DNA of 56,715 nucleotides, counting the filler, from Jimgerdemannia flammicorona (lineage: Eukaryota), in NCBI GenBank assembly GCA_003990765.1. It is 2 parts of 2 records of this genome, joined end to end, with 100 filler letters (N's around TTAATTAATTAA, not from the genome) between each part and the next. Parts side by side here need not be neighbours in the genome. Positions count along the whole stretch, not along the records: positions 28,410 to 56,715 come from RBNJ01000571.1; 1 more part is not named here. One strand, given 5' to 3'. Position numbers and translations under genes: made by a program. The number at the start of each line of letters is the position of its first letter. The stretch's first letter is position 1. The notes below the pieces were generated by a model. That model ran no database searches and had not been told where the DNA came from. It was given only the letters and a program-made list of their open reading frames with translations. This document shows, piece by piece, positions 13,168 through 54,529 of this stretch.

Positions 13168-13170
<3 letters not shown>

Positions 13171-14275: not shown

Positions 14276-15370
14276 CTTCTTGTTCAACTGATTGACCCTG
14301 AGTGTCTTTGAACAGGACCAGAATCCTCTTTGGTTCAGCAGTTTTCTTAGGACATTTAGTTGCAATGTGACCAGGCTGATGGCAAAAGAAGCAGGCTCCA
14401 GCCTTCTTGAGATACTCCTTTTCCTTGGGTATAAGCTTGTCTTTCTTGCTCTTGTCGATGGTGTCTAGGTCTATAGGGGCAGGTCCAACAGTTCTGACTT
14501 TGGGTTTCTCCCTTCTGTGGTTATTGTTGTTGAAAGACAGTCTCTTCTGTTCAAAGTGGTGACCATAGGTGATGACATCAAACATATCAGCAATTTTCAT
14601 TGCTGTATCTAGGTTCTTGGGTTCTTCTAGTTCAACATGAACTCCGGTTTGACCTTTCAGGCCTCAGATATACTTATTGACCTTCTCATCTTCAGTGACA
14701 TGTGGTAGTTCAAGCAGGATTGACAGGAATTGTGTATTATATACTTATATGGACTTGAGTTGTTTGATATTTGCCAGACAGTCTCACACAGCCTTAGTGC
14801 TGTTGACTTGTTTGAATTAGCCCTGAATAGCATCAGCAAATTCACCCCAGGTCTTGATTTGGCCAGAGAATCTGATATTCTGGATATGATTTCGCCACCA
14901 GATTGCAATATTCTCTTAGAGGAGTGTGGCGGCAAATTAGACTAGTATTGCTTCTTCCAAATTGGTCAGTTCTCCATATTTCTCCAATTAGAAAAGCCAA
15001 GTGTCAGTAGACAGTCCTTCTCTTTGACCATCAAAGATGTCAGGCTTCTGAGGCTTGATAGTGACTGCTGTCAGATGTATTGATGTCAGTAGAGGTGCAG
15101 AGATATGAGTAGAGGCCTTGCTTTCCTTCCTTTCTATGTGTTCTTAAAGTTGAGCAATCTGAGCTAGTGCAGTCTGCAAAAGACTCTCAATGGCCCCATT
15201 TGACTGAGTAGGGTTTTGCTATTCCTCTTCTTCTTGCTGATTGTATGAGACATTGTCTGGACTATAGGTACTGTATGAAGGGTTCCACCCATTGTCCTCT
15301 ATAGTGTTGTGACTGATATCTTGAGAGGTGTCTTGATAAGGCTAGATATAACTTCACTACTGCTACTAAG

Positions 15371-23800: not shown

Positions 23801-26544
23801 GAGAAGTTGTTCTTTCAGGGGAAAGTTTTCTCTAATAGTATATATGTGCTTGTTCTGATCCTTATCTCTCTTATGTTTGAGTTTGATAATCTTGATGGTA
23901 GTATAGACTCCTCTTCCAGTAGATCCAAAGCCTTGTTCTCCTCTCTTGGTCTTGATGAGTTTGATGGCTTCAGTGATCTTGAGTTTCTTGATTTTGTAGA
24001 TCAGTATCTGGCCAATCCTGTCATACTTCTTAACTTTAAATAGGGTGGTGGGGTTGTGATTCCGGACTATGAGGAAGATCTCACCAGTATAATCAGGATC
24101 AATTACTCCTCCTTCAACTGAGATTTCACTTTTGGTCAGACTGCTCCTAGTCTTGATAATTCTGGTATAGTTCTCTGGCAACCTAACTCTAGTTCCAGTA
24201 CCAAGTAGGGTAGTGGTCTGTGGTTCAAGGGTAGCATTTTGAATGCTAGCAAGGTCTATTCCTATGGCTCCTTCAGTCTTATATTCTGGGATCTTGGCTT
24301 TGGGGTGAAACTTCTTGACCTTGAGGGTGATGTCTGATTCTTGTTCCTCCTCATTATCACTGTTAGCCTGAAGCTCAGGGGGCTGGTCATCTTCTTTGGC
24401 TTTCTTTTTTGCTTTAGCGGCTTCTTGCTCATGTTTCTGTTGGTGGATTTTCCTAACTTCACTGATACAGAACCAGCAGTCATTCAGGTGTTCAGAGCAG
24501 TACATTCTAGTACCATGGGAGTATCTTCCTTGAGGGGCATAGCCATCAATGATTTTGTTATACCACTGCTCATCTGTGAGTTTAGATGTCTTGTTCTTGT
24601 TCTTGTTCTTATTCACTGAGTGCATAAAGACCTCTGTATCCTCTTCATCTCCTTCCTCCATGTCTGGTAGAACTCCTTTATAGATATTGATAGAGACTTA
24701 TACCTTTTTTCCTCTATAGTTAATCTGCATCTTCTGGGCATTAAGGTCAATGATGGCCTTGGCCTTATGAAGCCATTGGTTGCCAATAAGGATGTCATAG
24801 TTGGTGGCACTTATAACAATTATATCTACTGAGATGGTAGCTCCTCCTATCTTGATGGGGACTTCTTGGATTTTTCCAAGAGGGGTAGCTTGTGTACCAT
24901 CTACTGTGACATAGACCATCTTGGTGGACTCTTCAATATCCCAACTTAGGCAGTCAATTGTCTTCTTGCTCATGAGGTATTCTTCAGCACTGGTATCAAT
25001 GATGATATCAAAGATATAGTCGTCGATCTGATATAGAGTATAGGCTGATATCTTGTACTGGTCTTTGGATTCTTCACCTGAGTTTTTAGATTCTTCTTGT
25101 ATATTGTGAGCTTCTACAATCTTATATTCTTGATTCTTAATAGTAATTGCAAGTTCTACTCTCAACTACTGTCTGAAGGCAGAGACTTCAGCTAGCTGTC
25201 CAAAAGTAGCATTGACCTTCTATTTCTTAAGGTCCTTGTAGATATCATACTGGTGGATCTTAGTCTTATACAGCTTCTGTTCCTTCTTACTTTCACTTTC
25301 TTCTGAGACTAGAGTAGTGCTTTCAATAATTTGGTGGGCAGCTTTATCTAACTCCATGTCTTGATCAATCTCCTCAGGTTGAGTCTTACTTTGAATAGTG
25401 ATAGCTGGGGTCTTCTTTGGTCTTCCAACTGGCTTGCTGTTACTCTTCTTATCATAAGGCTTAGATTGGGTTCTGGTATCTTTAGTAGCAAGGTAGAATT
25501 CAAGCTCCTTATAGTATTCTTCATCATCAGTATTGCCAATCTCCTTGATGACTACTGCATTAGTTTGTTCTTTATTTCTGCTAGCATTACTTGATTGGAC
25601 TTTGTGTCTTGTTTTGGTCATACAATTCTTTGTATAGTGACCTTCTTCTCAACATCTGAAGTATGTGATATTACATTCTTTTATAGCAGTTGCAAATCTC
25701 TGCACTAGTCTCCTGTTGGTACTTCAGACTTCTCTAACAACATTACTAAGGTGTGTAGTCATCTTAGTGAACTATTTGGCAAGTTCTTCTACTGGATCAG
25801 CTTTGGCTGCCTTGGGGGTAGATGGGATTAGTTGTCTGTTTACAACTATAGTAGGTATAATACTAGTTGGCTTTAATGGCTCCATCTTAATGCCAGTTAT
25901 TTTCTTCATTGAGTGTTTGGCAGAGTGTCTAGCAGTCTAATATCTCTGTGCAAAGACCACTTTCTGATCAAGGGTTAGTGCAGCTGGGGTAGACCAAATT
26001 GCTAAGGCAATTTCAAGGTGAACTCCTTTGAGAAAGGTTGAATCCACTATTTGTTCCTTGAGAGTATCATCATAGCTAGCCAAGACAATCTGGTGGCAGA
26101 TTTGGATATAAAATGAGTTAGGATCTTCACTAAGTCTCTGGTAGATAGTATTGAGTTGATTCTTGAGAGCTTGCTTGATCTCTTCAGTATAGTATATTGC
26201 TCTGAGAAAGACCTTCATATTGGCAAGTTTGGCTGCACTATTATCAGCAATAGTGGCTATATTGAACTTATCTCTGATAGATCCTCTGAGGCTGACTGGT
26301 AGAAGAGCCAATTGTGCATCCATACTAAGGGCTTGTATGGTGGTAAATTGTTCAAAGTCTTTAAAAAAGGTCAGGATTGATTCTTCAGTAGTATATCTAT
26401 AGAATATGGAGAGATACATTTCCATCTTATCTTGAATTCTTGCAGGGGTGACTCTTATAGTCAGGGTAGTTATTGTGGAGTTGTTCATTTTTCAGCTTGA
26501 AAGTGAGAGATTTATCTTGAATCACCAGCCAATAGGCACTAAGT

Positions 26545-28309: not shown

Positions 28310-28409
28310 NNNNNNNNNNNNNNNNNNNNNNNNNNNNNNNNNNNNNNNNNNNNTTAATTAATTAANNNNNNNNNNNNNNNNNNNNNNNNNNNNNNNNNNN
28401 NNNNNNNNN
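28310..28409. other. Artificial contig-joining spacer (44 N + TTAATTAATTAA + 44 N)
   Basis: Exactly 100 nt, with a six-frame stop linker in the middle. Confidence 0.95.
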
Positions 28410-31938: not shown

Positions 31939-34900
31939 CTAGTGTCGCGGCATCCTAATCCCCGATAGATCCTGTTCGCTCGGGGACCGCATGGAGGACT
32001 TGGCCGGCCGTCTTGGGGGTACAGTGGAGCTGCTCTGCTGCGCGTACGCGGGTGCGGGTTTCGCGGGCACAAGTGGACGTTTCGACGTGTTCGACTGGCT
32101 GGCGATGCTGCTCACGACGGATGCGGGGAAATGCGGCGCTGTTTCGGGGGTGTCATAGAACGTGTCTGGGATTGCCCAGCTCTCCGGGGGCGACCAACTC
32201 GGTGGCGGGCTCGACCGGACCGATTGTGTAGGACTGGTGGGTTCCGCCGTCGTGCTGCTGGTTGCCAACCTGGCGGCGGGGATATCAGGCGAACCGTTGG
32301 GCGAGGGGACTTTGTTCATTGGCGGTTCGTCTCCCAGAAGGCCCACTTCTGTGATGAAATGGAAAAAGATTAAAATTCACCTTTTGATGCAGTCTTGTTG
32401 CGTAAATGTTTATGGAACAATTACGAACCTGATATGCTTTGATCCTGTGCCTTAGGTCCCCCCTTAACATGACCCGGGAACGCTTCCATGAATTCATCGA
32501 GAACTTTCTTGGTCTTAGCCTCAGCGTAGTAACTGCACTCGGGCGTAACGATCACGAACAGCAACTCAGTCGATAGGTCGTGCTCGTCGTACCGGATGTC
32601 GCACTTTGAAATTTCGTGCACACCAACACAGTCCACAGTGTAATAACGGAGGATAAGCATGAGGTCATAGTCGTTCAGGAGAATAATCCGCACACGCTTC
32701 CATACGCTGAATACTTTGACATTTTTGATATCGAAAGACCAGATCGATGACTGGATTTGAGATTGACAAAGATTCAACAGTCAGAATTAATGACCACACC
32801 GCCGGACCGACACTTGTGAACTGAGCGAGAGAGATGTTTACCGTGCTGTTTTGTAATATCTGGAGCTGTTCCGAGGTTCCGAGAAATCCTTTAGCTTTGG
32901 AATGCAGTCCAGATCGAGCCATCTGTTCATTCTGGCCAAGGATGTTGAATAATTCGAACCCCTTTGCCGGATCTTTATTGCCGGCCACCTTAGGGAAGAG
33001 AATAAACCATATCTTGCTCCAAAGAAGGAAAAATGTTGCCACCACGCAACATATCAGGATGATGGCGGTGCGGAGGGCGAACTGCGTCAGCAGATCAATG
33101 GTCGAGAGGTACATGACTGACAGAGAAGACATGCTAATGGATCAGTATTCTTGGTACATGAATTCAAAGAATCAAACGTAAATATTGTTTGAGGACTATC
33201 ACCGTACCTGGCAACGTTACAATAGCAGAAACGGCAAGCATGTAAACAGTGAAGGCGATCATATGACTTTCATTGAAAGGCCCACGGACCTTTCGAGTCT
33301 TGAAGGCCAGAACGAGGCATGCGACGAGCAGGAAGCCGTTCAGCACGTAAAGCGTGGACATCATGCCCAGTTCAAAAGACCGGGATTGGGAGCTGCACAC
33401 AAATATGTACTCCCTTGCGGGCGATAAAATCTGGATTGGCTAGAATGAAATCGCAAATGACATATCTTAATAATTATGCTTGGCACTGTGGACGAGATGT
33501 CAAAAGAAGTACGATGTAAAAAATAAATCTGCAGGGACATCCACCTTTGGAGGATCAACAAGAATCCAGATGGACACTACAATCTGTGTAGATTAACAAA
33601 TAAATATTACTATTCGCGTCCTTTACAGATGTTATTTATTCAAATTATATCTATTTCTCACCACTTCAATGGCAAGGATTACTCCACCGACGATTAAAAG
33701 TCGAGAGTCAGGAATGCCTTTGTTGAGTTTGCTGCGATTCTCTGTTGGGTTGAAGACTCGTCAGTGAAAGGCGGTTACATAACCTTTTGGCATAGTGAAT
33801 TTCATAGACGAAACGTACCGAATATCTCAAACACTCTATACGTCTTTGCCAGTAACATTCTACAATGCAATTTGGCAACGTTTTTATTTCGCGTCAGTAA
33901 ATTTACCTTAGCATTACTTTCGAAAACAAAATAGTCAACTCACCCAAAAACAAGTCCGAACGAGCACGCCAGGATGTAGGGCGCCGACTTGCACTTGACA
34001 TCACTCGGCTCGCCCACATACGTCAGAATATTGGACAATGCCAGCAGCACGCCGGCGGCGATCAGGCAACAGAACAGAGGACTAGCTGCTCTGACAACAG
34101 GGTTATGCCTTCGCGCCCACAAGAACCCAGCGGCCAGGATGACAAAGATGGCGGCCACTGCATATGTGCAAAGGAAGGCGAGGGCGGATTTGGAGGTCCA
34201 CTCAATCGTGATTGGCGTCACCAACTCGGAGCAATCATTCTTAAGGATATTAGTGTAATTCACAGGGCACTTGCAAATATCTGTGGAAAGATGGAATGCG
34301 CCGTCCGTATCGCAAGAACCGTGTGCGCAGCCATTATCACAGGGCGCTAAAGAGATAGGCAATGATAAGCTATGACGGCCCATTCCAAATTGGGGATACG
34401 AGAAGCACGGCAGGGTATTGTACTTACAAACACCATATAGCACGGTTCCGCCGGCTGTGAAGAGTTTAAGGATGTCCTTGACCTTCGCTGTGACAGTGGG
34501 AGTGAGAGGCACAAATTTGTTGTCTTGGACGATCGATTGAGCGTACTGATGTAAAGTTGGATACATGCACATCAGTTAGTCAGCAGCTTAGGTAGTACCA
34601 GATCTGTGTAACCACCCCATCTGCCTTTTTTGATATTTATGCATATATATATCCATATCTTCCAGACAAGAACTTACCGGATCCGTATATGTCCACCAAA
34701 TATACCGTAATGTTTTCCGCGCTGTGTCAATACTTGTCCAGTTGTTCTTGTGAAGGATGAGATATCTACATGAGTGAATACGGGCGTTAATAGATAGTGA
34801 TGATCGGCCAAAGCGATTGAGACTTACGCAACAATACTTACGTGAAACCGCACTGCAAGTATCCGAGTCAGAGCAAAAGTAGCCATGTTGTAGTTTCAGA

Positions 34901-36455
34901 TCCAATTATAGCAGTGGTGATGGGATATGTAGCCAAGAAATTACTTACAATAGGATAGCTCAAAGCGCTCGGGCCGTCGGAAATAGACGTGGCAAACCTA
35001 GAGGAGCTACTCAAAGCATCAGCGAAATCGTCGATGGCACTCTGGAAAAATATAATAGATTTAGAAGGTATTAGCTTGCCGATTATCAACGCGTGGTAGC
35101 AAAGCATGTTGTGCACCGTCTTGGTGCTCACCCCAATGGTCGTGCTATTCGGCCCAACTACTTTGCCAGCCTGGTTGATGAGAAGAGCGCTGGTAAGGTT
35201 GTTGCTAAAAACTTCGCCGTAGTCTTGAGGCCAGGGGAAACAGACGTATGTGTGTTAGCAACAAAGGACGCAATCACTACCGAGCCCCAAATACGATTCA
35301 CAATCAGATGAATTCTCACCCATATACCCAATAGAATATTGGATAGCGTAAATGTATTTGCCTACGCCGGAGTTAAGGCTTCCGTTGAAGTCAGCACGGG
35401 GCCACTTTGGCATCATACTGGTTCCGACGGTGTTGTTCCAATTCGAGTCGAAGCGCGAAAGCGCAGCGCTGAAGATGTTGGATGTGCCGCTGCCATCTTT
35501 GCGAACAACCACTTTGATGGTAGCATTGGGTAGCTAAACAGCATTTTATTATATTAACGCTTGCGAAAGCTAAAGTACGAGGTCAGTTTATTAGCGAAAG
35601 GAGAGCAAACCTGGAAGTTATTTGTCGCTTGGATAAGCGGATGGTTCCAGGTTAAGATCGTGCCATTGTAAATGCCGACGAGAGCTTGGCGCGTAAGAGT
35701 GATCAATTGGTTGATGGCATTGGCTTCAGGTACGTTGTAAGCGACCGCCACGGCACTGGGCAAGTTTTCGAAATCGATGTTAGCAGTTCAACATAACATG
35801 GAAAGACACGAAATCAATTGATCAAATTATGATTACCCGGCCATTGTCGGTATCATTTGCTGTAGCCGAAAGAGAGTTGGTATTAATTGCGTAGAAAATA
35901 AATACACATGACGTTGAGAGTTATCTTGTGATGCTTACCAGATCCCCGCCTAGAGCGTACTGTTCTTCGGTAAGCATCGCATCGCTTCCAGCAAATTGTA
36001 CTTTGCTACCAAGGATGGCATTTATGCCTGCCGTACTTCCTACAGCCGAATACGTTACTGTGACATTTTCATATGTTCGACTGGAAGATTTACCCAAAGA
36101 TATAGAATTTAGATTGGAGAACGTTGGTAGGATCGGTTGGGCAGACGAACAAATGAAATAACCAACATCGTCATTACCTGGAGTACGTGTTTGCCCAGAT
36201 ACTATAGACACTGTATGGAAATGAAGCACCGGCACCTTGTATAAGTGTAGTGTTTGTCGGCGATGTTTGTGCTGTAGCGTTTGTCGGCGGTGACGTTTGT
36301 GCTGTAGTGCGAAGTCCATGTTGTCAGCAACTTTGCAGACAATTGAGGATATCGGTACCCGAAAGCGACATTCCAGCTATTGATGTATGCATACCGTCAC
36401 TGCCAATGGTGACAAAGATGAAGAAGAGGGCGGCGACAACCTGCTGTCTCAACAT
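31939..36455 (-). CDS. Multi-exon receptor: signal peptide + PstS phosphate-binding domain + EGF-like module + class C GPCR 7TM + PH-like domain + Pro/Ser-rich tail
   Basis: GAGASFP, GSTAG, AGSDA, RKDGSGTS, SIGY (PstS); CDNGCAHGSC..CKC; PVVRAASPLF, AKTYR, AFKTRKV..FNES..I (class C 7TM). Some exon borders are approximate. Confidence 0.85.
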
Positions 36456-38999: not shown

Positions 39000-41900
39000 A
39001 TTTTATTCACTACATTTACTACATTTGTTTTTTGTAATTCTATTTGCAGTTCACATCAATTATGCAAGTTTCATTTATGATAATTTTATTCGTGGTTACT
39101 ATTTTTGTTAAATATTAGAAATATAGGTCATAGACTACTTATTATGAGCTTTTTTGTATATATAAATTAATTTTATTTGTATTATATAGCTTTTGCTAAA
39201 TATTAGATAAATAAGTTAAAATTAAATTTTTACAATATATTATTCAGACTAATTGTATGATAGTTATGATTTTCAGATTTTTTTTCAGAGAGTATTTATT
39301 GAAAGATTTATTATAGATTTTATATATTATAATTTTTAAATATTTTTTATTTTAATTAATTAAATAAAATTTTGGGTTTAATAATTAAATTAATTAAAAT
39401 TTATAATTGATATAAATATAAAAAAACAATATATAAATTTATATATTTTAAATATAAAATATATTTAAATAAATATTTTATATTATAATAAAATAATAAA
39501 AATAAATTTTTAATTTAAATTAATTATATATTTATAGTAAAATCTACTAATATTATTAATTTAATATATAATATTTAAAAAAAAAATATAGATACTTTAT
39601 TTATAAATATTATATTTCTTTATAAAGTATTATTAATAATAATAGAGTTAATATAATGAGTTTAATATCTATTCTCTGTTTTATATTATTAAGTTCTAGA
39701 TAAATTATATAAGATCTAAATAAAATAATATATAAAGTAAATAGATATATTCTTTATATTAAAATTTTCATTATTATATATCTCAATTATATAGCTTATA
39801 TATAACTATATCATCTTTGAGCTACATATATTACTTAATATATAAAAATGTGAGTAATTAATAAATAATACTACTGCTCTTTCTTTTTATTTCATATTTC
39901 TAATAAAGTTATAATAAAGATTATAAGCTCTATTTAGTGGCTAATCTTTAAGACTATATATTACTCTATATTAAGATATTATAAGAGATAAATTAAAAAG
40001 CCAGCATAAGTATACTAGCTATAGTAGATGCAGATATATACTTTTAGAATAGATATAATAATAGTTACAATCTCTGTTACTAATATAAATATAACCAAAA
40101 GGTCAATTTCTATCTTTAATGATAAGGACTATACTATTTGGATATTCTATAAACAATCTTCTAGAAAAATATAACTTAGTAGAGTATATAAAACTATAGA
40201 TACAGATTCAAAATTATGATGTTACAAATGATGACTGAGTATTATATAAAATTATATTTATATTGTTAAATTTATAATGAAGTATATAATATATATATAT
40301 AATGACTACTCATAAAGTATGAGAGACTCTATACAATTATCATATATAAGTATCTATATTGAATTAATTTTATCTGAAATCTCAGCTATTTAATCTATAA
40401 ATAAAGTATAAGAAAAGAATCTAAGAATATACTAATTATATTAATAATCTAATAAATTAAGTAAATTCTCTAAATATATCAGCAAAGAGATTCTGGTCTT
40501 TATAAAAAGTCTCTCTGAGATATATAATATTATAATAATAGCTATACACAAAAGTAGTAAGCTTATAGACTATATATATATCTATAAAATAATAAGTTTT
40601 ATAAATAAGGAGATGCATTAAGAAAACAGTAGCAATAATGATAAAAAAGTATTCTATGAATTATGCAGACTAGGTAAGAAGTACTAATAAGGTCAAAAAT
40701 ATAAATTCAAGTTTAATAGAAACTATTATTATTATAGTAAGTATGAGTATATATAAAATAACTACTATTATAAAGATAAGAAGAATGATAAAAATAAATA
40801 TAGAGACTAGTATTGGTAATATAAAAATAGTAAAAAGAATCAAAAGAATAGTAAAGAACAATATAATACAAATATTACAAAAACTAATAATAACTAAGAT
40901 AGAGATATATTTTATATATAAGTAATATATATTGAGTATCTAGAGAAGATATCTATATTAAGCTATATATTTTTGAACTAGTAAAAAACATTAATATTAA
41001 TAGTAAAGTATATACATATCAATATAACTAATAATAACAATATAAAACTTATAGATTCTGATACTATATATTCCTAAATACATCTCACTCACTTTTATCT
41101 AGAGCCTTGGCCTATATTTCCTTATCAGTAGCTACCATTGAATCTATTGGCTTTTTTTGTTTTTTGTTTTTTTTTTTTAAAAAATAAATCTTTCATTATC
41201 CAAAATAAGTTGCTTCAACTGATCAAAGAAAAAAAGAATGCATACTATAGCAAACTCCAGCATGCACTGAATCATTGTAAATATTGAGTTCCAATGCATA
41301 CAGATGTCTAATATAAGCTCTTTCAGAGCTAAACTAATTGTCCTACACTATGTAGTGAATTTGTCTCATCATTGTGGAGATGATTAGACCAATACAACTA
41401 GTTTGTATAGCTTGGAAATTATACTCAGAGCCCCTCCTCTCTTGGGTGTTTTGTCTATGTGTATAAGATAATCCTGATCAATATGTGGACCTGGTATTAC
41501 ACATGATAGCTTTCTGTACCAAAGGTCATGTTTTTCTATTTGAGGCTGGCCACTAAAACTTGGAAAAATATTGAGTTATTTGTAGCATTGTCTGTCATAA
41601 TGGCCAAAATCTGTACTTGAAATATTTAGTTTGTGAATTATGTAAAAATAAATAACTAATAAAATCTGTTTTATTTTAGGATCTCCCTCAAAATGCTGAC
41701 CTGATGACAAGCCCCCCTTTTTTTTACCTTAGTTGTGATCCCAAGCTTCTGAATATAACTAATAAAAGCATCTGTGATGTTGTCTCCAAAATGAGGGCCA
41801 GCAAGTTTGATGAAGTCAAGGGTGAGATATTTAAGCTACCAATTGAGGTCAATCTAATGATCAATAATACCCAGAAATGAAATTGCATTGAGGGATATCT

Positions 41901-43000
41901 ATGTATCATTTGTAAACAAAATTTTGTCTGCCAAATTCTGCTTATTGAATGTAAGGTTAAATTGGTGAGCTCTTTTATATAATTCAGCTTACAAAGGTCA
42001 CAGTACCACCCTTATTTTACCTGAAGTATCTGGTAGAGATTGTCATACTCCTTTCTATAGGCCTCCAGGATATCTTTGTAAATAGTATCAGTACTTGGCA
42101 AATATAAATCATACTTGAGAAGACCAAAGATGCTATGTAATTGATCACTCTCAATGGTTGTAAATGGCTGGTCTGTGCATACAATCTAGCAAATAAACTG
42201 ATTTCAAAATTCTGCTAAAGAGTATGGCTAAATATTTTTGATTAAATAGTGTTGTTAGTATAGAAATGGTTGGGCAATCAGATAAATATACCCACTATAG
42301 CTTAGATGTCAATTTTATTTATTTCTATGTTCTTTTTGATTTTGTTAGAGTGCTTGTCTTTTATATATTGATTTATGTTCAAAGTTGTACTATTAAGCAT
42401 TTTGAACTTCTGGCTGGTGTAGTTTATGAGGGTAGATGAAACAATATCATGTGTGTATCAAATAAGTCAATAGGTGCATCTTAATTTTTTATCTACAATA
42501 ATTACAAACAATATCATCTCCTATCTTAGCATAATATTGCCAGATTTCAGAGCAAGGATTATATAGAAGGTGTGGAACTATCAGAGATATTTGACTTGAA
42601 GTGCTGGAAGAATTTGAAATCTCAGCTAGTATGTAGTGTAGACAATAGTTGGCTCACTATAGGGTGGGTTTTAGTAGTGTGGGTAGGACTAGCTGATCAT
42701 TGGCTCTTTGTTTTCAAGGAGAGGCAATAGATGGGTTTATAGAAGAAATTATTATGGTGGAAGAGGTTGATGGAGGAGTGGTGGGTAAGTTGGGGCCTCC
42801 AGGGTGGGTGATATTACAGTCTGGTGGAAAAGATCTATGAACAGAGTAGTGGGCAGATAGAGATGGTGTTAGACAAAGTGGCTTTTTATTGAGTAGGGGT
42901 GAGGGAGAGGGAAGTCCTCCTAGGGGGATTGAATGAGGGGTGGACTTAATATATTTATATGAGATAGATGAGTATTAATAAAGGAAGGAGTCCAAGTAAC

Positions 43001-43036
<36 letters not shown>

Positions 43037-44000
43037 TGTTTAACTTAAAGTATCATCAGTACTGTAAACTGTTGAAGACTGATCTGTCAATATGTATGTT
43101 TGTGTATTTATGTATATATGTGTATGTATGTGTATATATTGTATATGCATGTATGTGTATTGTATATATGGATGCATTTAGCATATAAGTCATGTGGAGG
43201 ATTTAGATTAAAGGATTTAGTTGAAGGATAAGGATGAGGATTTGAATTGGAGAATTCAGATTGAGTGATTTGAATTGAGTGATTCAGATTGAGTGATTCA
43301 AATTGAGGTGGTTCAGATGGGTGATTCAGATGGGACAATTCAGATGGGGTAATTCAGATTAATCTGAGTTAATTCAGATAGCTTCAGATTTGAGATTTGG
43401 ATCAAACTATCATATAATAAATCAAATCCAAATTTGATTCGAATTGACTTGTTCAGAGCACTATTATTAATATCTATTATCTTAGAAATATAAAAATATT
43501 CTTAATGTATTTATTTTTATTTATATAGATTTTTAATTATAAAAATAATAATAAAAGTTAGTATATCTTAGTTATATATTTCAGTAAAAAATAATTTTAT
43601 TTTTTTGACTGTTTTGTACCTATATTTAGAGATAAGATTTTAAAAGTTTATAACTTTTAAAATTATAATAGTTTTTAAGAAAAAATTTATCAATAATTTT
43701 TTATATACATAATAATTCTATCTTTGGTAAAAATTTTATAAAAAAATTTTTTTTTTTTTTAAATAAATTAAGATATATTTTTAATATAAAAACAATGTTT
43801 CAAAAAATCTTTTTTTTTCAAACTTTAATTTGTCTGCTAAATGATTTTAAAAGAATAGTCAAAGGGATATAACTTACTATAGTATCTTTAACTTATTTAG
43901 ATATAGCTTTTTCTTAATACCTTAAGATCTACAAAATTTATTTATTTTTATTAAAGTTTTATTTTTTTTCTTTGCATTTTTTCTATGTAGAAGTGACTAT
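39000..44000. repeat. Very AT-rich decayed repeat block
   Basis: Abrupt composition shift, almost no CpG, abundant TpA. Confidence 0.75.
41100..43463 (-). mobile_element. Degenerate hAT DNA transposon remnant
   Basis: Minus-strand relics IVCTDQPFTTIE, TNDT*ISLNAISFLGIIDH*ID, ILAIMTDNATN, DICMHWNS; GATTCAGAT subterminal repeats at 43250-43445; putative end TAGTGCTCTG at 43463. Confidence 0.75.
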
Positions 44001-45469
44001 TTTTCCTCATTGGCAAATTTGCTTACCTAATTGACTAGCTATTGATCTCTGATTCATCACACAAAATTTTGTCAGGACCGCATACCTTAATCCCAAATTG
44101 ATGATGATTTTGATGACGTTTCCCTTGATGACGTCTCATATAAGCCACTCAAGAAATTATCAAAAAGAGTTGAATGACGTGACAAATAGCGACGTCATTG
44201 CTGATGACGATTTAACGAACGTGTAGACCATCCGTGGACGAGTAGACAATCCGTTACTTACGTCCCCCAAATGTCCATCCATTCTCAACCATGTAAGGAG
44301 CATGAGAGTGGGCGACGTGGTTGGCGGCAGGAGTCCATTCGGGGGTGCCAGGCTCGGGAACCCATTCGGGGGTAGCAGGCTTTTCATGGTGGAATGTAAA
44401 CACGATGCACAGTATAAATTGTAAGAAATCGCACTCACCCTCCTATTCCTTATTAGTACTCCAACGGAACGTCTCCGAGTGGGTATCTATCCAAGGAGAC
44501 GGGGGAACATTATTACTAAAAGGCTTCAGTATACGTATATAGAATACATTTTAGAAGATTACACTTCGTTTGTTGGACTGAACCAGAGGTTGGCGAAGAT
44601 AAATTCTTTGCGTACATGGAGTGATGCGCTGACATGTGACCAGTTATGAGGAATTGGGGTTTTGCGTGGTCAAGCATCAGATGTGTGGGATAAGAGAGTA
44701 TGGACGTTGTGTGGTGTTTACAGTTCCACGCCTCTGATGGATGTTGATTATGTCGCAATATATGTTAATAAAGCTTTGTTTGTGGTTTTGCTACATAATG
44801 GGGAATTTTACAGTAGAGTACACTGAAGGTACGCGATTTTACATATCTATCAAACAGAAATCGACTATTGTGTACAACTATATACAAATTCTACGCCAAA
44901 TGGGTGGGAGAAACAGGTGCGAACACAGAACAAAAAAGATTCAGCTTAATATCTTGTCTTTTAATTTTTTACCCCGAGTTAGATTATCTGGATTGATATG
45001 GGACAGAGCGTTTCGCAGCTGGATCGTTTGGTGCGTGGGGTAACCTATTTAGTGTGATGCTGATAGGCAGTGGTACATGTACATACTGACCAAATACGAC
45101 GATCCAGAATCCAATTGAAGGTTGCATATTTACCATTGCCAGCCATTCCAAGCATTCCAAGCATATATATACTGATGAGCGCTATCAAAAGTCTAAAAAT
45201 GCTGAAGTCCTGTTTGTTGTGGAGAAGCGGGGATGGATGAGCGAGAGAGGCATAAAGCGCACGTTTACGAAATTCACAACATCAGTTGGCGGGTGCCATA
45301 ACTATCAATCGAACCAGCGATGCTCACCTCAACGTGTCAGACGTACGTGAACAAAGCCATGCAGGAGAGGGAAGTTAAAAAAAAAAAAAAAGGCTGGATT
45401 AGCCCCTAATTTTCATATCACTTGTTCTCTCTTGATCACTTAGAACCTCGCGCCAGTTCATACGCCCCC

Positions 45470-47039
45470 TTAAGAGAAACAAAAAGGTAAAGAAGGGTAG
45501 CATGTAACTCCTCTTTCTCGCACCTCAATGGAAGCATGGCTAAGATGATTAAGACTTGTAGTGAGTCAAGTTCGACAGAGGCATTCGGTGGATCAGCCAT
45601 TGAGCTGGATTGGGACGAACTAAATTAGATAACATAATATCCGGTATTGTTTATGCAGGTGGAGAACGACAAGGTATTTTAATCCAATACTTACGTTTCA
45701 TTAGATACATCCTCCGTAAGGCTTGCAGTCTGTGATGGCGGCGGTAACAGTTCTCTGATGGTCTTCTCGTGAGCTTTGAAGAACATAAAAAGTGATGCTC
45801 GGATTGCCTCAGTTGGCTTGAATCCACCAGAAAACGACTCAAACTCGTCGTTGAATTTTTCTTCGTCCCACTGTCGCACGAAGGTTCTATCTTGGAGGGT
45901 GTAAGCTTCGTTGACGTAATCGTTAAGTACATCTGATTAAAAAAAAAAAAAAAAAGGGGTTAGAAGCCGATCTCAATCTTGTGTTGCCGGCGTTCAATAG
46001 AACGACCTGGGTGCTCACACCAGAACAACACCCACTAAAAGGCGCCCACCCTGAACACAATCACGCAATTCTAACCTGTGACTTTCCAACGGGTATGGGC
46101 GATTCGTAATGGCGATGTGGCAGTCATCTTGCAAAAACGGTCCCTGCTAATATATCGATTTGAAAGTCAGGATCATCCACGGGGCCGCAAATCAAATAAA
46201 CACAAATTCAGGACGATTCTAATGACTTTACCAGTTTGGATCGAGCCATGTAGCAAAGCCGCGCACAATTGGATCCCGTAGGAGAACCTGGTGATGCATA
46301 TCTTCGAGGGTATCTTCATCGTTTTTGAACGTATGTTGTTTGAATGTCAGTCTGAAACGTCCTTCGCTGTCGTGATCTTCATGAACAGGGAAAATTTGTG
46401 TTGAGCTTAAATGGCCCCACACAAAAGAAATGTTGGATGGTGAGTTTGGGGTACAGCCGAAAAAAAAACAAAAAACTGTCAGACGAAAGGGCAAGGACAT
46501 ACATTTGACTGGTCTCTTCAACATAGGCACGAAACAGGCGATCCGCCAGCTGATACAAATCGTATTATTAGTTATTTGCTAGAAAGTGCGTCACATCGAA
46601 GAAGAGGTTTTGGAAGGACCCGCAGGGAGCGAATTTGAACAGACCTCCACGTCTGACGTCTTCAAGATGGGTATATGTCGGTCTCTGGCCTTTTGTAAAA
46701 TCGTTAGGTATTCATGATCAGTTGGTTTGATTTCGTTGTCAACTACGACAAACTCCTGTTGTTATGATATATTGGTTGGGGTTGAATAGGCAGAATTAAT
46801 ATAGATTGTTTGATTGTGCTTTTCGATAAAATCAGTCAGGAAGGGGTGAAGCCGCATACAGCCTGTTCAATTCCATTCACAATCGTGATGTTTATCGACG
46901 AAGGAAAATATTGCCTGATTTGTTTATCTTCGGATAACCACGTTTTGACAGGGCGTACATCAGAGCGCAAGTGGTAGAACTGCTTCCCAACGAGTGAGTG
47001 AGGAGTCCAGCGTGGCAGCCAGATTTCAGACGAGCTCAT
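45470..47039 (-). CDS. Gene A': BRCT-like N-terminus + uncharacterised domain; kinase-less paralog of gene A (3' end uncertain)
   Basis: Spliced blocks WLPRWTPHSLVGKQFYHLRS / LQKARDRHIPILKTSD / LLRDPIVRGFA / PLRIAHTRWK / VRQWDEEKFN match gene A, with shared intron positions. Confidence 0.75.
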
Positions 47040-47242
47040 GCTTGGGTATTGTTAGTAAACATAGTAAACAGCAATGCAGCGTCAGCTGCATAATTATACA
47101 CGTGACTAAGCCCCACGTGCTTGCCGTGGAAAGAGTCGTTATCTATTTCTTACGCCGCATACTCACAGATTTCTACCATGTTGTCAAGGCCCCTTTTCCC
47201 ATAAACCTCACGGAGATAGTCACCCACTATTTTTGAAATACA

Positions 47243-48178
47243 ATGAATACCACCACGTTCAAGTGTAAATTCGACGAGAATCTCCTTGGTTTCGTTGGTA
47301 AAGCCGTACTTGAGAATTTTGATGTTGAGATGGAAGGTGAGTAGTCCTCTTTCCTCCGGGAACCCCTTTGAAGCCGAATGTGAAGGAAGTCTGAGTCCTG
47401 CTTCTCTCCATTATCTGCAATAGGAATCGGGGGGAAAGATGATGAGGCCATCACTGTCGAGGCATCAAAATGCGGGCGCACCATCATTACGAATGATACA
47501 GATTTTCTCTTCACACTGAACAACGAATACGGTGTAATCGTTCTGTGGGGAGGCATCCACAACGACAACGGTATCTGGCAGCCCTTGCGTTGTTTGAAGA
47601 GGATGGAGAGGCAAACCGCCGTTCTTCTGTTGTTCAAACAAAATTTGAGAGAAATGGAAAGGTACATAATTACAACGCTCTCGTTGTCAAACATTTTCCC
47701 CAAACATATCTAATGGGAAATTATTTTGGCAATTATTTCTAGGATTCGCGATGAAAGGCGTTGTGCACTAGCATCGTTGTCTGGGAGAAAATCTAATCAG
47801 ACTCTTTCGGTGCTGAAGTGGGAATTCATAGAGCCGACAGACGATCAGAAGAAGTACTTCTTGAAGCGACGTGAAGAGAAAACCCTGGAGGCGCTCGAAA
47901 ATGCAAGAAACAATGCATCTGCTTCGCCAACGCCCATTACCGTCAGTACCGAACCGATTCCTCCACAGAAAACTCAAGACTTCTCCGGTTCTCCGCTTAT
48001 TCCTGAAAATACTTCTGAGTCGTCAAAGTCTGCATGTCGAGCGGGGTACCAAGGCTACCCCAATAGAAGAATCCACAATGGCGACTCTGATACTCGAGCA
48101 AATTCTATTGACTTCAACCAAATTTTTATTAGTCTAAGCAGGCCGAATAGTGATTTCCCATTTACGGTATCATTTTAG
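47243..48178 (+). CDS. Gene B': stand-alone PIN-like (DUF5615/Mut7-C type) protein; exons 47243-47336, 47424-47661, 47743-48178
   Basis: FKCKFDENL...GIGGKDDEAI...GRTIITNDTDF...GVIVL pattern; GT-AG introns keep the frame. Confidence 0.8.
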
Positions 48179-48693
48179 TTTGGAACGATGTTTTGAGGAA
48201 CTTGGGTCCTTCATTTTCTATCTTTCAATGAGCCTTTCCTGATTGGGTAACATTGTCCCTACGTTTGGTTCAGATATACCATAGAGTGTGACTCTTTTTA
48301 CGCATGATCATGTGAAAAGTCTTTGCCACAAATAAATGACATGTGAATAATTGGCTTTTCGATATAAGTAGTGCGATACGCCTAGTCCGAAGTTTATAAT
48401 TGACCATTGCTATTGGTTGCTTATGTCACTTTTCTGCGTGACTGTGTGAGATAATAAAAGGGGTATGCAGGTGACAAGCCTGATTACAACGCACTATGGA
48501 CTAACGCGAATATATTTTAAGGACGTCTTACAAATACGTGTATATATATATATATATGTAATACGCTTAACATTATCCTGACTGCATAGAGATTTGAGTC
48601 GACACTTTCTAAAGACAAAAAATGCAAAAGCTACTATCTCATTACATTATTCGCTGGATGATCATATGATAAAACGTCATGAGATAAAAAATA

Positions 48694-51600
48694 TCATTTT
48701 GACCCTTTCTGAGTTTTGCTTCTCTCCAGAATTTCCATTTTCGCTTCCTTTTTCGCCAAGAATCGTATAAGCTCTGGATCCGTGAATTTTCGGAATGTCC
48801 ACTTAACCTCGCCGCCGACACCCTTTGAAAGAACCGCCATCATTGTTTCTCCACTTTTTTGCAGTCTACACGAAAAATTGAATAAACATAAATTCCGTCC
48901 ATTTTCTTATACAAGCAAGGGAAACGAACTCAAATACCAACCTTTCAATCTCACCAAAATAATTCCGGAAAAGAACGTGCACGATATTTTGCTTCTCCTG
49001 TTTTCTCATCCTACGAAGAGTAGCATATCGACCGTCTTCTTCAAGGTAGCCCCCCATGAGGATCAATATCCCGAAAGGGTTGTTTTGGAGATAGAAATCG
49101 GTATCGGTGGTTATAATTGTCCTGCGCTCGGATGTTGCGGTATCGGTGATCGTCTTTTCGGAAGCACCACGGATTCCTAGCGTTTCGAGATCAACTGCAT
49201 CAACACCAAAGTCTAGACGATTGATTATGTCGACCCCGAATCTAAAATTGTCATCGAACATAATCTTAAAGCCTTGGTATTCTGACTTTTGATATCTCAG
49301 CTTAATGTTAATTAGCTGATGAACAACTTGCTGGGCTCCTGGCCGTGCAGACGGCGTATCAGAAGTACATTGTTGATATAACGCGACGAGTTCCTCGGGA
49401 CAGTCTCGAATAGGTTCAAGCCTGCTTGGATTGATCCGCGCGTATCCTGCAGAAGGATTTGTTCCTGAGAGCACCTGTCGGATGATAACACCAAGGCTGA
49501 AGATATCTTGCGACTGGTCAAAGGATGGCGGGGGTCTGTTAATGATGCGTTCGGGGGCTGTGTATGCCATTCTTCCGTACATGTTGGTGGAAGAAAAGAT
49601 TTCGGCTTCTGAGACCGTTCTACTCAGCCCGAAATCAGCGATGACGGGATTGCGATCGACATTGATCAAGATATTGGCAGAGTGAAGATCGCAATGGACA
49701 ATGTTCGCTGCGTGAAGATGGGCGAGGCCGTATGCAATACCCATACACATGTCTATCCGCTGCGATTGAAGAACGTTCAATTTATAGTTCGGTTCACAAA
49801 CGTACTCTTGCAAACTGGATATCGCGAGCTCCATGACGATGTACGGATGATGCAAATGGTTCTGGGAGATGCCGTAGAAATTCACAATGTTCCTATGGGT
49901 AGTGACGGAATTCAGAACTTTAACCTCGCGAATGGTGGCAGTAATGTCGTCGATCTGCTGTTTGACTGCAACCTGTTTTCCGTTCCAAATGCCACGGTGA
50001 ACATCTGCAAATGCTCCGCGTTTGTAGAAATATTTCTCAATTTTCAGATCGTCTATAGGGATAATGTAGGAGCCCAGACGTTTCAACTGCTCGAAAACTT
50101 TGGATAGCGCCCCTTGATCAGTGGCTTTAAGATAGAAAGAAGGACACAGTTTAATCAAAGATAAACATTCATGTAAATGAAACAAAAGATATTAAACTTA
50201 CGGTCAAGGTCGCGACTTCTGGCATTGACGACCGTCATGCTGCTATTACTGACATCTACGATCGTCATGCTGTTATCCCACTGCCGATCTCTGTCGTCAA
50301 AGCCGTCTGCCAAGTCGCTCAACTTTTTCACAATCTCGGTGATATTTGGCAAAATCGACGATTCTCGGTTCCAGCACTGATCCCATAAACTGTGATATTC
50401 TTCGGGAGTATTCTCTGGAAATTCTGTTTCCCGCTTCCCTTCCGTAATGCTCTGCCACACCATCGAATTATCTGCATTGTCGAATGCTGGTCTTAACGCG
50501 GAGATCTCCCAGAGCAGAACCCCAAAGCTAAAATAATTAACGGGTCAACTCTGAGTATTTCATTTCACGATGGCAAGTTTGAGAGAATACTCGGCGATTC
50601 CGTATTCATAGGAACTACGGCAGAAATTTCGGTACAAAACGATACCTGCCTATATACATCCCGACTCAGTTCAGTGTTGGGTTGCTGGTCATCAAAGCGG
50701 TCGCTAGTGCTTTTGCTACTCATGCTGAATCCACTCAATGCTATGCTACCGTTTTGGCGAACCAGAATATTACTGCAATCCAGATTGTCATGAACGAAGC
50801 CGTTGTTATGAATGCACTGCAATGCATGCGCCAGTTGTAGAGCCATGTCAACCTTGAACGGCCATCGAAGATTTGGACGGTTTTTCCAATAGTCATGAAG
50901 GCTTCCGTTGCTGGCATACTCCATAACCATTTCGAATTCTTTTGTCAAAGGGTTGCTGTATATGAGACGAAAAGCACAAAATTTGTTACCCTGATCGTCT
51001 ATAAGACAGGGATGGAGTGGTTTTTTATATTTATATAATGAATGCTTACCATGTTGCGCCCTCCAGCTGGATTATATTGTCACTTGGGCCAACGGAATAG
51101 ATCGATCGCATTTCACGTAAAAATAAGCTCCTTTCGTAAAAAACCTTAAGGGCAACATCGCGATCGTTCCATGTCACACGATAAACCGACCCGGAATCGC
51201 CTCGGCCAATCAAGTTCGCAGCATCGAACTCAATGTCTTGGTAGGGTATAGTCTTGATAGCACCTTCTGAGAGTCTTGCGTTAAACCAAACTTGATCGGT
51301 TTCTGGCGAATTCCCCTGATTTGATGCGGCCTTTGCCCGTCTCGGGGCCACCACGGTTTGTAATAGATCGGTGACCAATTGTCCGCGTTGAATGTGTTGG
51401 TGGATTAGCCAATGTCCACAGTCGGCCATTTGTTCAATTTGCAATTGTTGCACTTCGATCGCTTTTTTGTTGGTTTCCTCATCGAGAATAATTTCCTGTA
51501 TCAATTTGATGTTATCCAGGTCAGCTGGCGACGGCGTCATCGTCTCATTGTTGTCACCCGGAATTTCTTCGTCGGTTTCGGTCGCGCTTTCGATACTTGG

Positions 51601-52188
51601 GCTGGCAGATGCTGGAGGCAGCCGATCCTTTACAGATTTCTCATTCGTTATGTAGAATACAAAAAGGGCAGCGCGAACAGCCTTTGTTGGCTTGACATGG
51701 TCCGATGGTGTCTTGAAATCTTCATTAAACTTGGCTTCATCCCATTCTCGAACGCAAGTCGTTGGACCGACAAAATCCCACGCATTAGATCGGTAATCAC
51801 CCAGGACGTCTTTAATTTTCCAACGCGTATTGACAATCCGCAATGGGTTTGTTCTTATTATCTCACGGAAGTGTTTCCTGTCGAGTTGCGGATGAACTTG
51901 TTATTCAACTTGGTTAAAACACCCCCCTCCCCCCCAAAAAGGGAAAAAAGATGCGTCGTTCGATGTTCCGTTGTAGAGGATGCATGTAAATATTTACCAG
52001 TCGTCATCCAATGTTTGAGCAAATTTGCGAACAATTGGATCCCTGAGAAGAATTTCGTGATCCAAGAGCTCATTCCCCTCGTCACTATTCCGGCATTCAA
52101 TGTCATTTTCCCCGAATGTCAGCGTAGGACAACCATCTGTATCACGGCCCTCTTGAACGGTGAACTGTTTTGCACTTTCACTGCTGAC

Positions 52189-52231
<43 letters not shown>

Positions 52232-52838
52232 AAAGAAATTAGAATGAGCTAAGAACATCTACGTTGATGTGAATACCGAAAATGTAGGCGCTTAATGAAT
52301 TAGTAATTTCTGCCTTTACTTGCGAGGATGGCCAAACAAGTCATTTAATTTAGTTTTAGTAGAGCCATGAAAGAGCTGTCGCGCCAGCTGGATGTTCAGG
52401 ATTGCGAAAATAGAGATGACAAATTTATTAACAATTTTGTTGAACTCCAAAATACAAAGAATCGCACAGTAATTCTAAGACATACCTTTAAGTCAGACGT
52501 CTTCAAAATAGGTATGTTTCTTTCCCTTGCCTTTCGGAGGACATCTTGGTATGCAGCATCCGTTGGTGGGACGTCATCGTCAACTGCAACAAATCCCTAT
52601 AATTTTATGGACATAGAGATGGGTAAATATTCAATTTCGTTTTGTTTAACCTCCTCTGAACTCAGGACGGTAACTTTACCGCTTGATCAATATTATTGAC
52701 TAAATAAGCATCTAACGGCTCATCTCGAGTTGAACATGTTGCAGAGTTGCCGGAACGTAAGTGGTAGAATCGTTTGCCTTTGAGGAGATAGGGAGTCGGC
52801 CGTGGAAGCCAAACATCGTTCAGGGGGGAGGTTCTCAT
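48694..52838 (-). CDS. Gene A: BRCT-like + unknown domain + pseudokinase + TKL-type kinase + C-terminal PIN-like domain
   Basis: Kinase 1 has GRGDSG and VALK but HDN for HRD, GFS for DFG and no APE. Kinase 2 has VAVK, HCDLHSAN, DFG, APE. Tail reads FKIMFDDN...GIRGASE...RTIITTDTDF. Last exon 48694-48865. Confidence 0.82.
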
Positions 52839-53291
52839 TTTGTAAGAAGAATGGTTCAAATCCGTCAACAATAATCGTGGCTAGTTAAGGGGCGCTGTCA
52901 CGTGGATAACTAATTATTCGTAATCGTCACTTGGTCGTCACTGGTCAAATCGGTAAATCACCACATGAGGATCACATGACAGAAAGGGAATCAATCAGTC
53001 TGCAACATCATAACTACCGTAATATGCAATTTTTTTTTTTTTTCCGGCATTCTTGAAGTTGAAGACAGTTACATTATTCTAATTTTGAACGCGGCAACGC
53101 ATATACAACACCTATGTTCTACTTCCAACGATCTTACTGATAATCAAGATGACGCGGGATAGCATTGTCACGATGGTAGTTTCACGTGATTTCCTAACAT
53201 CTGTTTACTTCCGCGGTTCGCTTGACACTTCATGAGTCCGAACAGTCTTCAGTGGTTCTTCGCTCTTCGGTGGTGCACTGAATCACCGACA

Positions 53292-54046
53292 ATGAGCGTC
53301 TTCAAATGCAAATTTGACGAGCATTTCCTTGATGTGGTGAGGCGTAACGTATTGGCCGAGTTCAAGTCACACTTCACGGATCCGGATGGTTTTGTGGATG
53401 ACGTCGATATCGAGGGTGGGTAATGCCAGCTGTCCTTCTCAACTCTGTCTTATCTCGGCCTAAATTTCTCACGTAACAATGCCGAATAGGAATCAGAGGC
53501 CAGGACGACGCAACAGTCCTAATTCACGCCGCAAACACGGGACGTACGTTGATCACGAATGATGCCGACGTCTTTTTCCTGCCGGACAACACATACGGCA
53601 CAATTGTCTTGCGGGGTGGTGTGAGTGAAGTCAACGGACCGTCTTGGTGTAATTTAAATCGCTTTTCGAGAGATGAAAGGAAGGAAGTGTTTTGTCTGTT
53701 ATTCCGAAATTATATGGCCGATATGGAAAGGTGAATATGCATTCATGTTCGTGAACATTGTGCTATCGGTTAGCAAACTCAATTAACGAGGTGTACGCGC
53801 ATTAACGCTGTCAGCATACGCAGAGGGAGCCAAACGAAGCTGGCACTATTGTCGGGCCGTTGTAAAATGGAATTATTGCCGGGTAGGAAGAAAATGAAAA
53901 AAACTTTATCTGACTTACGATTCGACTTCCGAGATCCGACCGCCGAAGAAAAGGAGGAATTCTGGAAGGCAGTACAAGCAAAAGAAGAGGCAAGAGTCGC
54001 AATGAAAGAGGCTGAGTATCGGGCTATGGCGCAGCCATCCATCTGA
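53292..54046 (+). CDS. Gene B: stand-alone PIN-like (DUF5615/Mut7-C type) protein; exons 53292-53415, 53490-53730, 53815-54046
   Basis: FKCKFDEHF...GIRGQDDATV...GRTLITNDAD...GTIVL; same two intron positions as B'. Confidence 0.8.
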
Positions 54047-54529
54047 AGGTAGATCTCAACCGCCCGTTTCCACTATTCGGACGGTAGTCCCACCAGTGTT
54101 TTTCGATCATCCAAGGTGTGCAGTGCAACTCAAGCGCGTCGCAGGTTTCATTGACGGCAATAACCGCGGTTCCGCAGGACAAAATCTCCCGTTCTACCCA
54201 CATGACGTCGCGGGAACCCGAATTCTCTCGTCACAATACAGATGCTATTTATCATCGAAGGCTGTATATTAGCTCTTTCCGCTGATGAGAATAAATACAA
54301 TGCAACACATTGTTAAGTTAACCGAAACAATACAAATATTTGTTTTATTTCTTATTTTTAAAGAAGGATAATCGAGAGGTATGCATTCTGACAAGTATTA
54401 TGACTACGAATAATTAAAATGCGAAGGGGTGAGGGTATTTGATACCAAATACCTTGTATCCTAAGCGATCTTTATTTAGTCTTGGTGATTCAAAATTAAG
54501 AGTGAAACTTTGAAATATAATAATATAAT

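Follow-up and report, generated by a model that had tools for sequence, protein, structure and literature searches.

Stress and immune signalling depend centrally on kinase-gated nucleases, represented by Ire1 and RNase L, and on tandem kinases that carry integrated domains; all known examples either rely on a different nuclease fold or are of animal or plant origin. We describe here a gene of Jimgerdemannia flammicorona, an ectomycorrhizal fungus of the early-diverging Endogonales, that lies on the minus strand of a 56,715-nucleotide stretch (the window) made of two parts of GenBank assembly GCA_003990765.1 joined with filler letters, of which positions 28,410 to 56,715 come from RBNJ01000571.1. 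This gene, the fusion gene hereafter, codes for a single chain in which a pseudokinase and a kinase are placed between a domain with no recognised family (domain A) and a PIN-like domain of the DUF5615 family (the B tail), a combination not seen in the databases searched. It thus unites both of the above ideas in an early-diverging mycorrhizal fungus, via a fold known from bacterial toxin-antitoxin pairs. No printed description of it was found within one literature library, judged by titles. Among the described systems, the Spok spore killers are, by analogy, the closest fungal precedent for a nuclease and a kinase in one chain, killing by Spok3 requiring a predicted nuclease domain and resistance a predicted kinase domain (PMC6660238). 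Tandem kinases with integrated domains are also on record from plants (PMC13478195, PMC10260399).

The structure of the fusion gene follows from transcript data, in the form of assembled contigs of two sequencing runs from two studies (X1 and X2; sampled-word share 0.73 and 0.69), mapped onto positions 45400-54300 of the window. The runs are labelled RNA only as a guess, and we infer that they are RNA-derived from the eight introns absent in the contigs, with GT/GC..AG ends. The contigs, 3451 nt (X1) and 3193 nt (X2) in length, skip these introns and give the following gene and domain layout (aa, amino acid residues).

48694..52838, minus strand: whole coding sequence of the fusion gene, 9 exons, 3339 nt, 1112 aa, single terminal stop TGA at 48696-48694
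52838-52680, 52596-52486, 52387-52320, 52183-51998, 51877-51050, minus strand: exons 1-5, from spliced contigs
50955-50650, 50527-50202, 50124-48942, 48865-48694, minus strand: exons 6-9, from spliced contigs
50528..50649, minus strand: GC-AG intron of 122 nt inside the pseudokinase, joint 50527|50650, ends CT..GC, in both runs
48599..52842, minus strand: extent of the transcript contigs, adaptor letters following at 48599 (X1) and 52842 (X2)
51616..52838, minus strand: domain A, aa 1-262, 35-45% identity among four proteins, no Pfam family
51247..51615, minus strand: linker 1, aa 263-385, in the exon that also holds the last part of domain A and the first part of kinase 1
50302..51246, minus strand: pseudokinase (kinase 1), aa 386-628, spread over three exons
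49295..50059, minus strand: kinase 2, aa 684-938, by Pfam and alignment
48944..49273, minus strand: DUF5615 PIN-like tail, aa 946-1055, by Pfam, family alignment and hhalign
48697..48943, minus strand: B-family C-terminal extension, aa 1056-1112, with a W-x-F...P-x-x-E motif, past the phase-2 intron 48941-48866

Seven of the splice joints are directly listed, each in both runs, the GT..AG introns (minus strand) being 48866-48941, 50125-50201, 50956-51049, 51878-51997, 52388-52485 and 52597-52679. The eighth intron (52184-52319, joint 52320|52183) is not a listed joint and was deduced from record lengths and the reading frame, the X2 record lengths leaving exactly 186 nt for exon 52183-51998. 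As contigs can cross separate genes (the first X1 record covers both A2 and B1, two neighbouring genes considered below), their continuity alone is weak proof of a single gene. A single chain is argued for instead by the exons that its parts share, exon 5 running from the last part of domain A into kinase 1, and exon 8 holding both kinase 2 and the tail, and by the splice joints between them, two falling inside the pseudokinase fold and one joining the exon of kinase 1 to that of kinase 2, since such joints cannot come from merged transcripts. The locus is thus one expressed nine-exon gene, coding for one 1112-aa chain in the order domain A, linker, pseudokinase, kinase with every catalytic residue, B (DUF5615) domain. 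An earlier reading of the DNA by itself (the sequence-only reading) had proposed a pseudokinase-kinase-PIN fusion at 48694..51260, to be confirmed by one transcript spanning 52838-48694. The spliced contigs of both runs provide that transcript, the region not being split into separate genes, and the parts named are all present on the minus strand; the interval given covers only part of the gene, which begins with the 262-residue domain A. That domain, the partner of the B genes, was left out of the earlier inference, as was the Spok precedent; with domain A included, the kinase pair sits between A and B.

The second allele, as represented by X2, appears intact: its coding sequence differs from that of the window by 7 substitutions (3 silent and 4 replacements), with no indels listed. 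Three of the four replacements are also present in the public protein model for this locus, P0024, which is 569 aa long and consists of domain A and most of kinase 1, followed by 19 residues without a counterpart in the kinase. When the window is re-modelled with a GT donor at 50657 and the same acceptor, the length (569 aa) and the C-terminus of P0024 are reproduced exactly, with 7 residues different. The transcripts use the GC donor at 50649 and keep the frame (DVY|SFGVLLWEI), whereas the GT at 50657 runs into a stop. The deposited annotation thus loses kinase 2 and the tail because the GC-AG intron was missed, and, as the public model ends at 569 aa, architecture surveys cannot see the full protein. 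One X2 contig, of depth 363, touches only 50724-50744 and 51179-51209, has non-canonical ends (GC..CA) and long loose ends, and probably represents a paralogue elsewhere in the genome, or a chimera.

The two kinase folds differ in their catalytic residues, located as follows.

minus strand, kinase 1 motifs: glycine loop 51207-51181, VALK 51156-51142, HDN 50795-50769, GFS 50735-50718
minus strand, kinase 2 motifs: VAVK 49972-49958, HCD/DLHSAN 49699-49673, DFG 49639-49622, APE 49561-49547
50026-49997, minus strand: degenerate glycine loop of kinase 2, K-R-G-A-F-A

Kinase 1 is encoded in pieces in three frames, two of them matched by Pfam at 2.7e-14 and 2.3e-9 and the third giving a weak N-lobe match; in P0024 it is matched by PF07714 at 2.3e-20. 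Aligned to solved kinases via P0024, it has retained its glycine loop and the lysine of VALK, has H-D-N in place of H-R-D and G-F-S in place of D-F-G, and lacks an APE, the gap between GFS and DVYSFG being 22 residues only. The loss of the catalytic Asp, DFG and APE, already proposed from the sequence, is thus borne out, and by alignment kinase 1 is a pseudokinase, a kinase fold in which both the catalytic and the DFG Asp are missing. A single uninterrupted exon, 50124-48942, contains both kinase 2 and the tail, and Pfam applied to 48869-50122 (minus strand) recognises PK_Tyr_Ser-Thr (PF07714) at an E-value of 1.3e-36 over residues 35-270. Aligned with MAP3K12 and a Src/Abl ancestor, kinase 2 carries VAVK, HCD, DFG and APE, together with the alpha-C Glu and the Asn of the catalytic loop. 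By its profile, kinase 2 is a tyrosine-kinase-like eukaryotic protein kinase, and, having the features expected of eukaryotic protein kinases, it is probably live. The two folds share 23% identity (64/274), and thus do not represent a recent duplication.

Directly after kinase 2 lies a homologue of the neighbouring B genes, as the sequence-only reading had noted. This tail is 36% identical to B1 and 31% identical to B2, and it has in common with both a phase-2 intron in the Arg codon of '...ER', while the first B-gene intron (phase 1, after '...EG') is absent from it. Its motifs are given below.

minus strand, tail motifs: FDD 49270-49244, GASE 49174-49154, TTDTDF 49123-49091

The PIN similarity of the tail, also part of the sequence-only reading, holds by both Pfam and hhalign. 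DUF5615 (PF18480, which we take to be COG4634) is recognised in the kinase 2 exon at an E-value of 5.5e-8 (33.1 bits, cut-off 23.8, residues 286-357), and in the tail by itself at 7.2e-9 (35.9 bits; Pfam gathering cut-off 23.8). In an 18-row alignment of fungal B domains, the tail keeps the invariant positions (Ala, Arg, Thr, both Asp of TxDxDF, two Gly and two Leu), and of the acids that mark the family (FDE, GxxD, TxDxDF) it keeps those of FDD and TTDTDF. By these profile scores, the tail is a true DUF5615 member. The 18-row alignment was compared to 8 bacterial DUF5615 proteins, from plasmid loci with an adjoining DUF433 gene, resulting in an hhalign probability of 89.4% and an E-value of 2.1e-6 over 77 columns. 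By this comparison, the fungal B family is homologous to bacterial DUF5615, with the reduced PIN-like fold of toxin-antitoxin toxins. Rows of the Atlas in which DUF5615 clusters also carry PIN_10, with scores of 0.75, provide only a lead on the match of PF18480 to COG4634. A PDB profile search with the B family returned just one chance-level FlgN row, and tblastn of the tail against plasmids returned two chance-level rows.

In 9 of the 12 plasmid loci the annotated DUF5615 gene adjoins a DUF433 gene, and among these 9 are the Synechocystis pairs sll5003/sll5004, sll7033/sll7034 and sll8007/ssl8008, classed as PIN/COG2442 toxin-antitoxin pairs (PMC4963859). Another such PIN-COG2442 pair, vapBC10, causes growth arrest that is neutralised by the partner, making it a working toxin-antitoxin system (PMC3834315). 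In a survey of the PIN superfamily, COG4634 and PIN_10 are placed in the Mut7-C group, with the most reduced PIN fold, 4 among 1732 COG4634 members are eukaryotic, and the COG4634/PIN_10 group is listed with no solved structure in 2017 (Matelska et al., PMC5499597).

A search with the tail among 1.84 billion protein representatives returned 20 matches, 19 of which are true B-family members; the twentieth, P0020, was dropped as a B relative, being an RTX-repeat protein matched by chance. Some of the related proteins are fusions in their own right. One example is P0011 of Endogone sp. (577 aa), in which A is fused directly to B, with DUF5615 at residues 316-366. Another example is P0023, also of Endogone sp., in which a fungal MACPF-like domain (1.4e-8) follows A. 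Fusions ending in B include a third kind, P0019 (Endogone sp., 787 aa), with a haloacid-dehalogenase (HAD) type II domain (8.6e-24) followed by a C-terminal B. The A-type proteins found, through word-index searches and in the window, are P0024, A2 and P0025 with its cluster in J. flammicorona, and P0011 and P0023 in Endogone sp., domain A of the fusion gene being paralogous to the stand-alone A2 and to the N-termini of P0011 and P0023. In the window the gene order is A2(-) and B1(+), then the fusion gene(-) and B2(+), making two divergent A/B pairs. In a 24,426-bp contig of Endogone, consecutive tags 92752 to 92755 represent P0023 (A-MACPF-like), P0008 (B), P0011 (A-B) and P0016 (B). A-type and B-type genes thus alternate in both genera, each of which has a B domain at the end of its second A-type gene. 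The same alternation in two genera argues that A and B work together, a point separate from their binding to each other. On gene order and homology, A and B together make up a two-gene module, so far found only in Endogonales fungi.

Domain A has no Pfam family at E-values up to 10, and no NCBIfam or PADLOC family; the scans with the latter two produced generic kinase matches and the HAD type II match in P0019, and nothing else. A PDB profile search with domain A gave no match, and Foldseek of its structure model against the PDB gave nothing at E-values up to 0.001. A second model, of the C-terminal half of A from P0025, had a predicted confidence (pLDDT) of 57.1, below that of the first. In a wide structural search, A residues 20-97, a stretch with pLDDT of 56-70, matched many BRCT chains (best Z 4.9, rmsd 3.1, 62 aligned), and residues 180-254 had a weak fold match to the DUF433 chain 2ga1_B (Z 3.3, rmsd 2.7, 57 aligned). 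An assignment of domain A to DUF433, suggested by this match and by a likeness of motifs, was not supported, with an hhalign probability of 0.2% against 12 bacterial DUF433 proteins and no match to that family by Pfam (E up to 10) or PDB profiles. A feature search on domain A placed SPOK2_N-bearing clusters at rank 12 with a score of 0.84, below the 0.9 line, a lead only.

How does this protein compare with the described systems? With Ire1 and RNase L it shares a kinase fold directly before a small nuclease-type domain in one chain, and with RNase L a catalytically dead kinase fold. The differences are a KEN domain there and a reduced PIN-like fold here, one kinase fold there and two here, and the fusion protein is without ankyrin domains or a lumenal sensor domain. 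The match of kinase 2 to IRE1 kinase domains has an E-value of ~4e-18 and is no better than those to Src or MAP3K12, and the Pfam scan of the kinase 2-tail exon, at E-values up to 0.1, found kinase families and DUF5615 only, and no KEN domain. The likeness to RNase L and Ire1 put forward in the sequence-only reading therefore survives as the anatomy of a kinase followed by a nuclease-type domain, and not as kinship: the protein is an analogue rather than a family member, the likeness being convergent at most.

The bacterial DUF433-DUF5615 pairs (PIN-COG2442 VapBC, such as Synechocystis vapBC10) resemble the fungal genes in the DUF5615 domain of the tail and the B genes, and in one constant partner gene. 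However, the fungal partner, domain A, has approximately 262 aa and is not detectably DUF433; the fungal genes are intron-bearing and divergently transcribed, while the bacterial pair is an operon; and the fungal B proteins have an extra conserved C-terminal extension, with the kinase pair standing between the partners in the fusion. Plant tandem kinases (WTK4, Lr9 and others) also have two tandem kinase folds, one of them dead, plus a fused non-kinase domain. The protein here is fungal, its extra domains are domain A and a PIN-like domain, and the likeness is one of plan. Spok of Podospora is likewise a fungal single chain with a nuclease-type and a kinase-type domain, their roles being opposed (PMC6660238). 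In Spok a PD-(D/E)XK nuclease precedes an ELK-like kinase, and there is a Cys cluster, whereas here a PIN-like domain lies C-terminal to a pseudokinase-kinase pair. The Spok hallmark, a PD-(D/E)XK domain and a Cys cluster before the kinase, was not found in the fusion protein, though the Pfam copy used may lack SPOK models. JAK also has a pseudokinase immediately before an active kinase. Unlike JAK, the fusion protein has neither FERM nor SH2, and it has a nuclease-type domain that JAK does not, the kinase similarity being generic.

Our preferred reading, to which we give a probability of roughly 0.4, is that of a kinase-controlled nuclease, the activity of each part being predicted. The kinase pair would have been inserted between A and B in the fusion gene, the B tail would be the output, a metal-dependent nuclease, and the pseudokinase-kinase pair would be the switch freeing or assembling this tail, via phosphorylation of the chain or via pairing of kinase domains. 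Domain A, which would normally deal with B-type proteins, may serve here as a mask or an input. The setting may be a conflict or self/non-self system rather than housekeeping, which seems likely because other A-type proteins end in a MACPF-like pore-former domain or in a hydrophobic tail.

A number of observations weigh against the kinase-controlled nuclease. Kinase 2, described as intact in the sequence-only reading, has indeed all the catalytic residues, but its glycine loop is degenerate and the catalytic-loop Lys is His (DLHSAN). In the tail, the near-invariant Asp of GxxD is Glu, while it is Asp in the other 17 of 18 rows. None (0) of the 19 true relatives of the tail among the 1.84 billion representatives has a kinase domain, a count that covers the fungal subfamily only, as the search reached no bacterial DUF5615 at an E-value of 0.001 and a kinase joined to a distant DUF5615 would escape it. 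No (0) tail-bearing protein of 733-2090 aa was found in a separate search, and the kinase-kinase-B architecture was found in one species only. In the B-domain tree the tail groups neither with B1 and B2 nor with the A-B fusion of Endogone, its long branch being flagged; 11 of the 17 inner branches are open, and thus the origin of the tail, as well as one event versus two for the A-B fusions, is unsettled by this tree. The structure model of domain A is middling (pLDDT 67.5) with no recognised fold, and the domain has no detectable similarity to DUF433, the partner of bacterial DUF5615. A complex prediction for domain A and the tail gave a score of 0.00 with controls absent, and bears on neither side.

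Some of these same observations would be expected from an integrated decoy, in which a weakened B copy would act as bait for binders or modifiers of free B proteins and the kinase pair would report. The Glu at the near-invariant Asp is found in the tail only (1 of 18 rows), the tail is on a long branch, free B genes flank the fusion gene on both sides, and plant tandem kinases with integrated domains offer a precedent (PMC13478195, PMC10260399). We nevertheless find a decoy unlikely: a Glu in place of the Asp still offers a carboxylate, the tail retains FDD, TxDxDF and the invariant Ala, Arg, Thr and Gly, B proteins have no known ligand or attacker, the pseudokinase precedes the kinase, and a partner receptor is not evident.

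A single-chain toxin-antidote resembling Spok, a selfish element whose nuclease tail would kill while its kinase activity would protect, is an improbable alternative. The split of killing (nuclease) and resistance (kinase) in Spok3 (PMC6660238) would fit a chain whose B domain comes from a bacterial toxin family and whose locus lies among retroelements, and the SPOK2_N lead points the same way, its score (0.84), however, being under the 0.9 line. The nuclease fold is PIN-like here and PD-(D/E)XK in Spok, with the domain order reversed, and the kinase here is of the tyrosine-kinase-like eukaryotic type, while the eukaryotic-like kinase (ELK) type was proposed for Spok, and no Cys cluster was seen.

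Rather improbable too is a young chimera without an integrated function, resulting from the local joining of A, tandem-kinase and B genes, with the product tolerated: it would fit the restriction to one species, the repeat-rich region and the first B intron missing from the tail, as in a rearranged copy, but a frame of 1112 codons is open in two alleles with eight introns correctly spliced, one of them GC-AG, the identity of the tail to its neighbours, only 31-36%, marks it as an old copy, and an independent A-B fusion in another genus suggests that the joining of A and B recurs.

If the kinase-controlled nuclease is taken to its widest implication, Endogonales would have placed a bacterial PIN-like toxin family in their own intron-bearing genes, with A as a new partner, and built from it a single-chain sensor-pseudokinase-kinase-PIN switch. 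Such a switch would be a PIN-based counterpart of Ire1/RNase L, of independent origin, acting as a cell-autonomous defence or a self/non-self death effector, with sister genes in which a pore-former (A-MACPF-like) or a membrane tail replaces the nuclease. We regard this wider picture as speculative and its correctness as doubtful. The case is of value as an example of a toxin family of bacteria that has become established in a eukaryote alongside a new partner, and the four domains, which are separable and have unfused A and B paralogues nearby, offer a compact system for asking how a pseudokinase-kinase pair could control a PIN-type nuclease.

The neighbouring genes of the A/B module are as follows.

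45172..47039, minus strand: A2, stand-alone A-type gene, ~352 aa, from contig joints and a gene model
46075-45933, minus strand: extra intron of A2, placed from splice signals and homology, not a listed joint
47243..48178, plus strand: B1, stand-alone B gene, 255 aa, 3 exons, divergent from A2
53232..54046, plus strand: B2, stand-alone B gene, divergent from the fusion gene

A2 ends in a hydrophobic stretch that resembles a membrane anchor. Its intron 46075-45933 holds a poly-T run, and the fusion gene has no such intron; intronic poly-T runs, in the minus-strand reading, are seen at 45930-45966 in A2 and at 52191-52250 in the fusion gene. The translation of B1, compared by eye, equals P0021, a J. 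flammicorona protein, and exons 1-2 of B2 equal P0006 of the same species except for one residue. Exon 3 of B2 (an open reading frame at 53774-54043 plus the stop codon) was assigned by homology; X2 contigs over the B2 region extend across 53122-54300. One X1 contig, 46645-48329, runs through A2 exon 1 (minus) and the whole of B1 (plus), skipping 47041-47166; either the assembler merged divergent transcripts that overlap, or B1 has an exon further upstream.

The window as a whole has the features of eukaryotic genes, with short GT-AG introns, Ty3/gypsy-type elements with a dUTPase, a 7tm_3 receptor and a xanthine/uracil permease. Copies of the Ty3/gypsy-type retroelements are located at 3347-5518, 16013-18548 and 23744-25165, and also at 9361-14663, and in three copies a dUTPase is present between the protease and the reverse transcriptase (6.8e-28, 5.8e-21 and 1.4e-25). 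Runs of 44 N each, at 28310-28353 and 28366-28409, are filler at the part boundary. Pieces of a 7tm_3 (class C GPCR-like) receptor are recognised at 33167-36376 (minus strand), with a PBP_like_2 periplasmic-binding-type piece upstream, and a very AT-rich block, with a GC content of 0.13-0.36, extends over 39001-44000, between the receptor region and the A/B locus.

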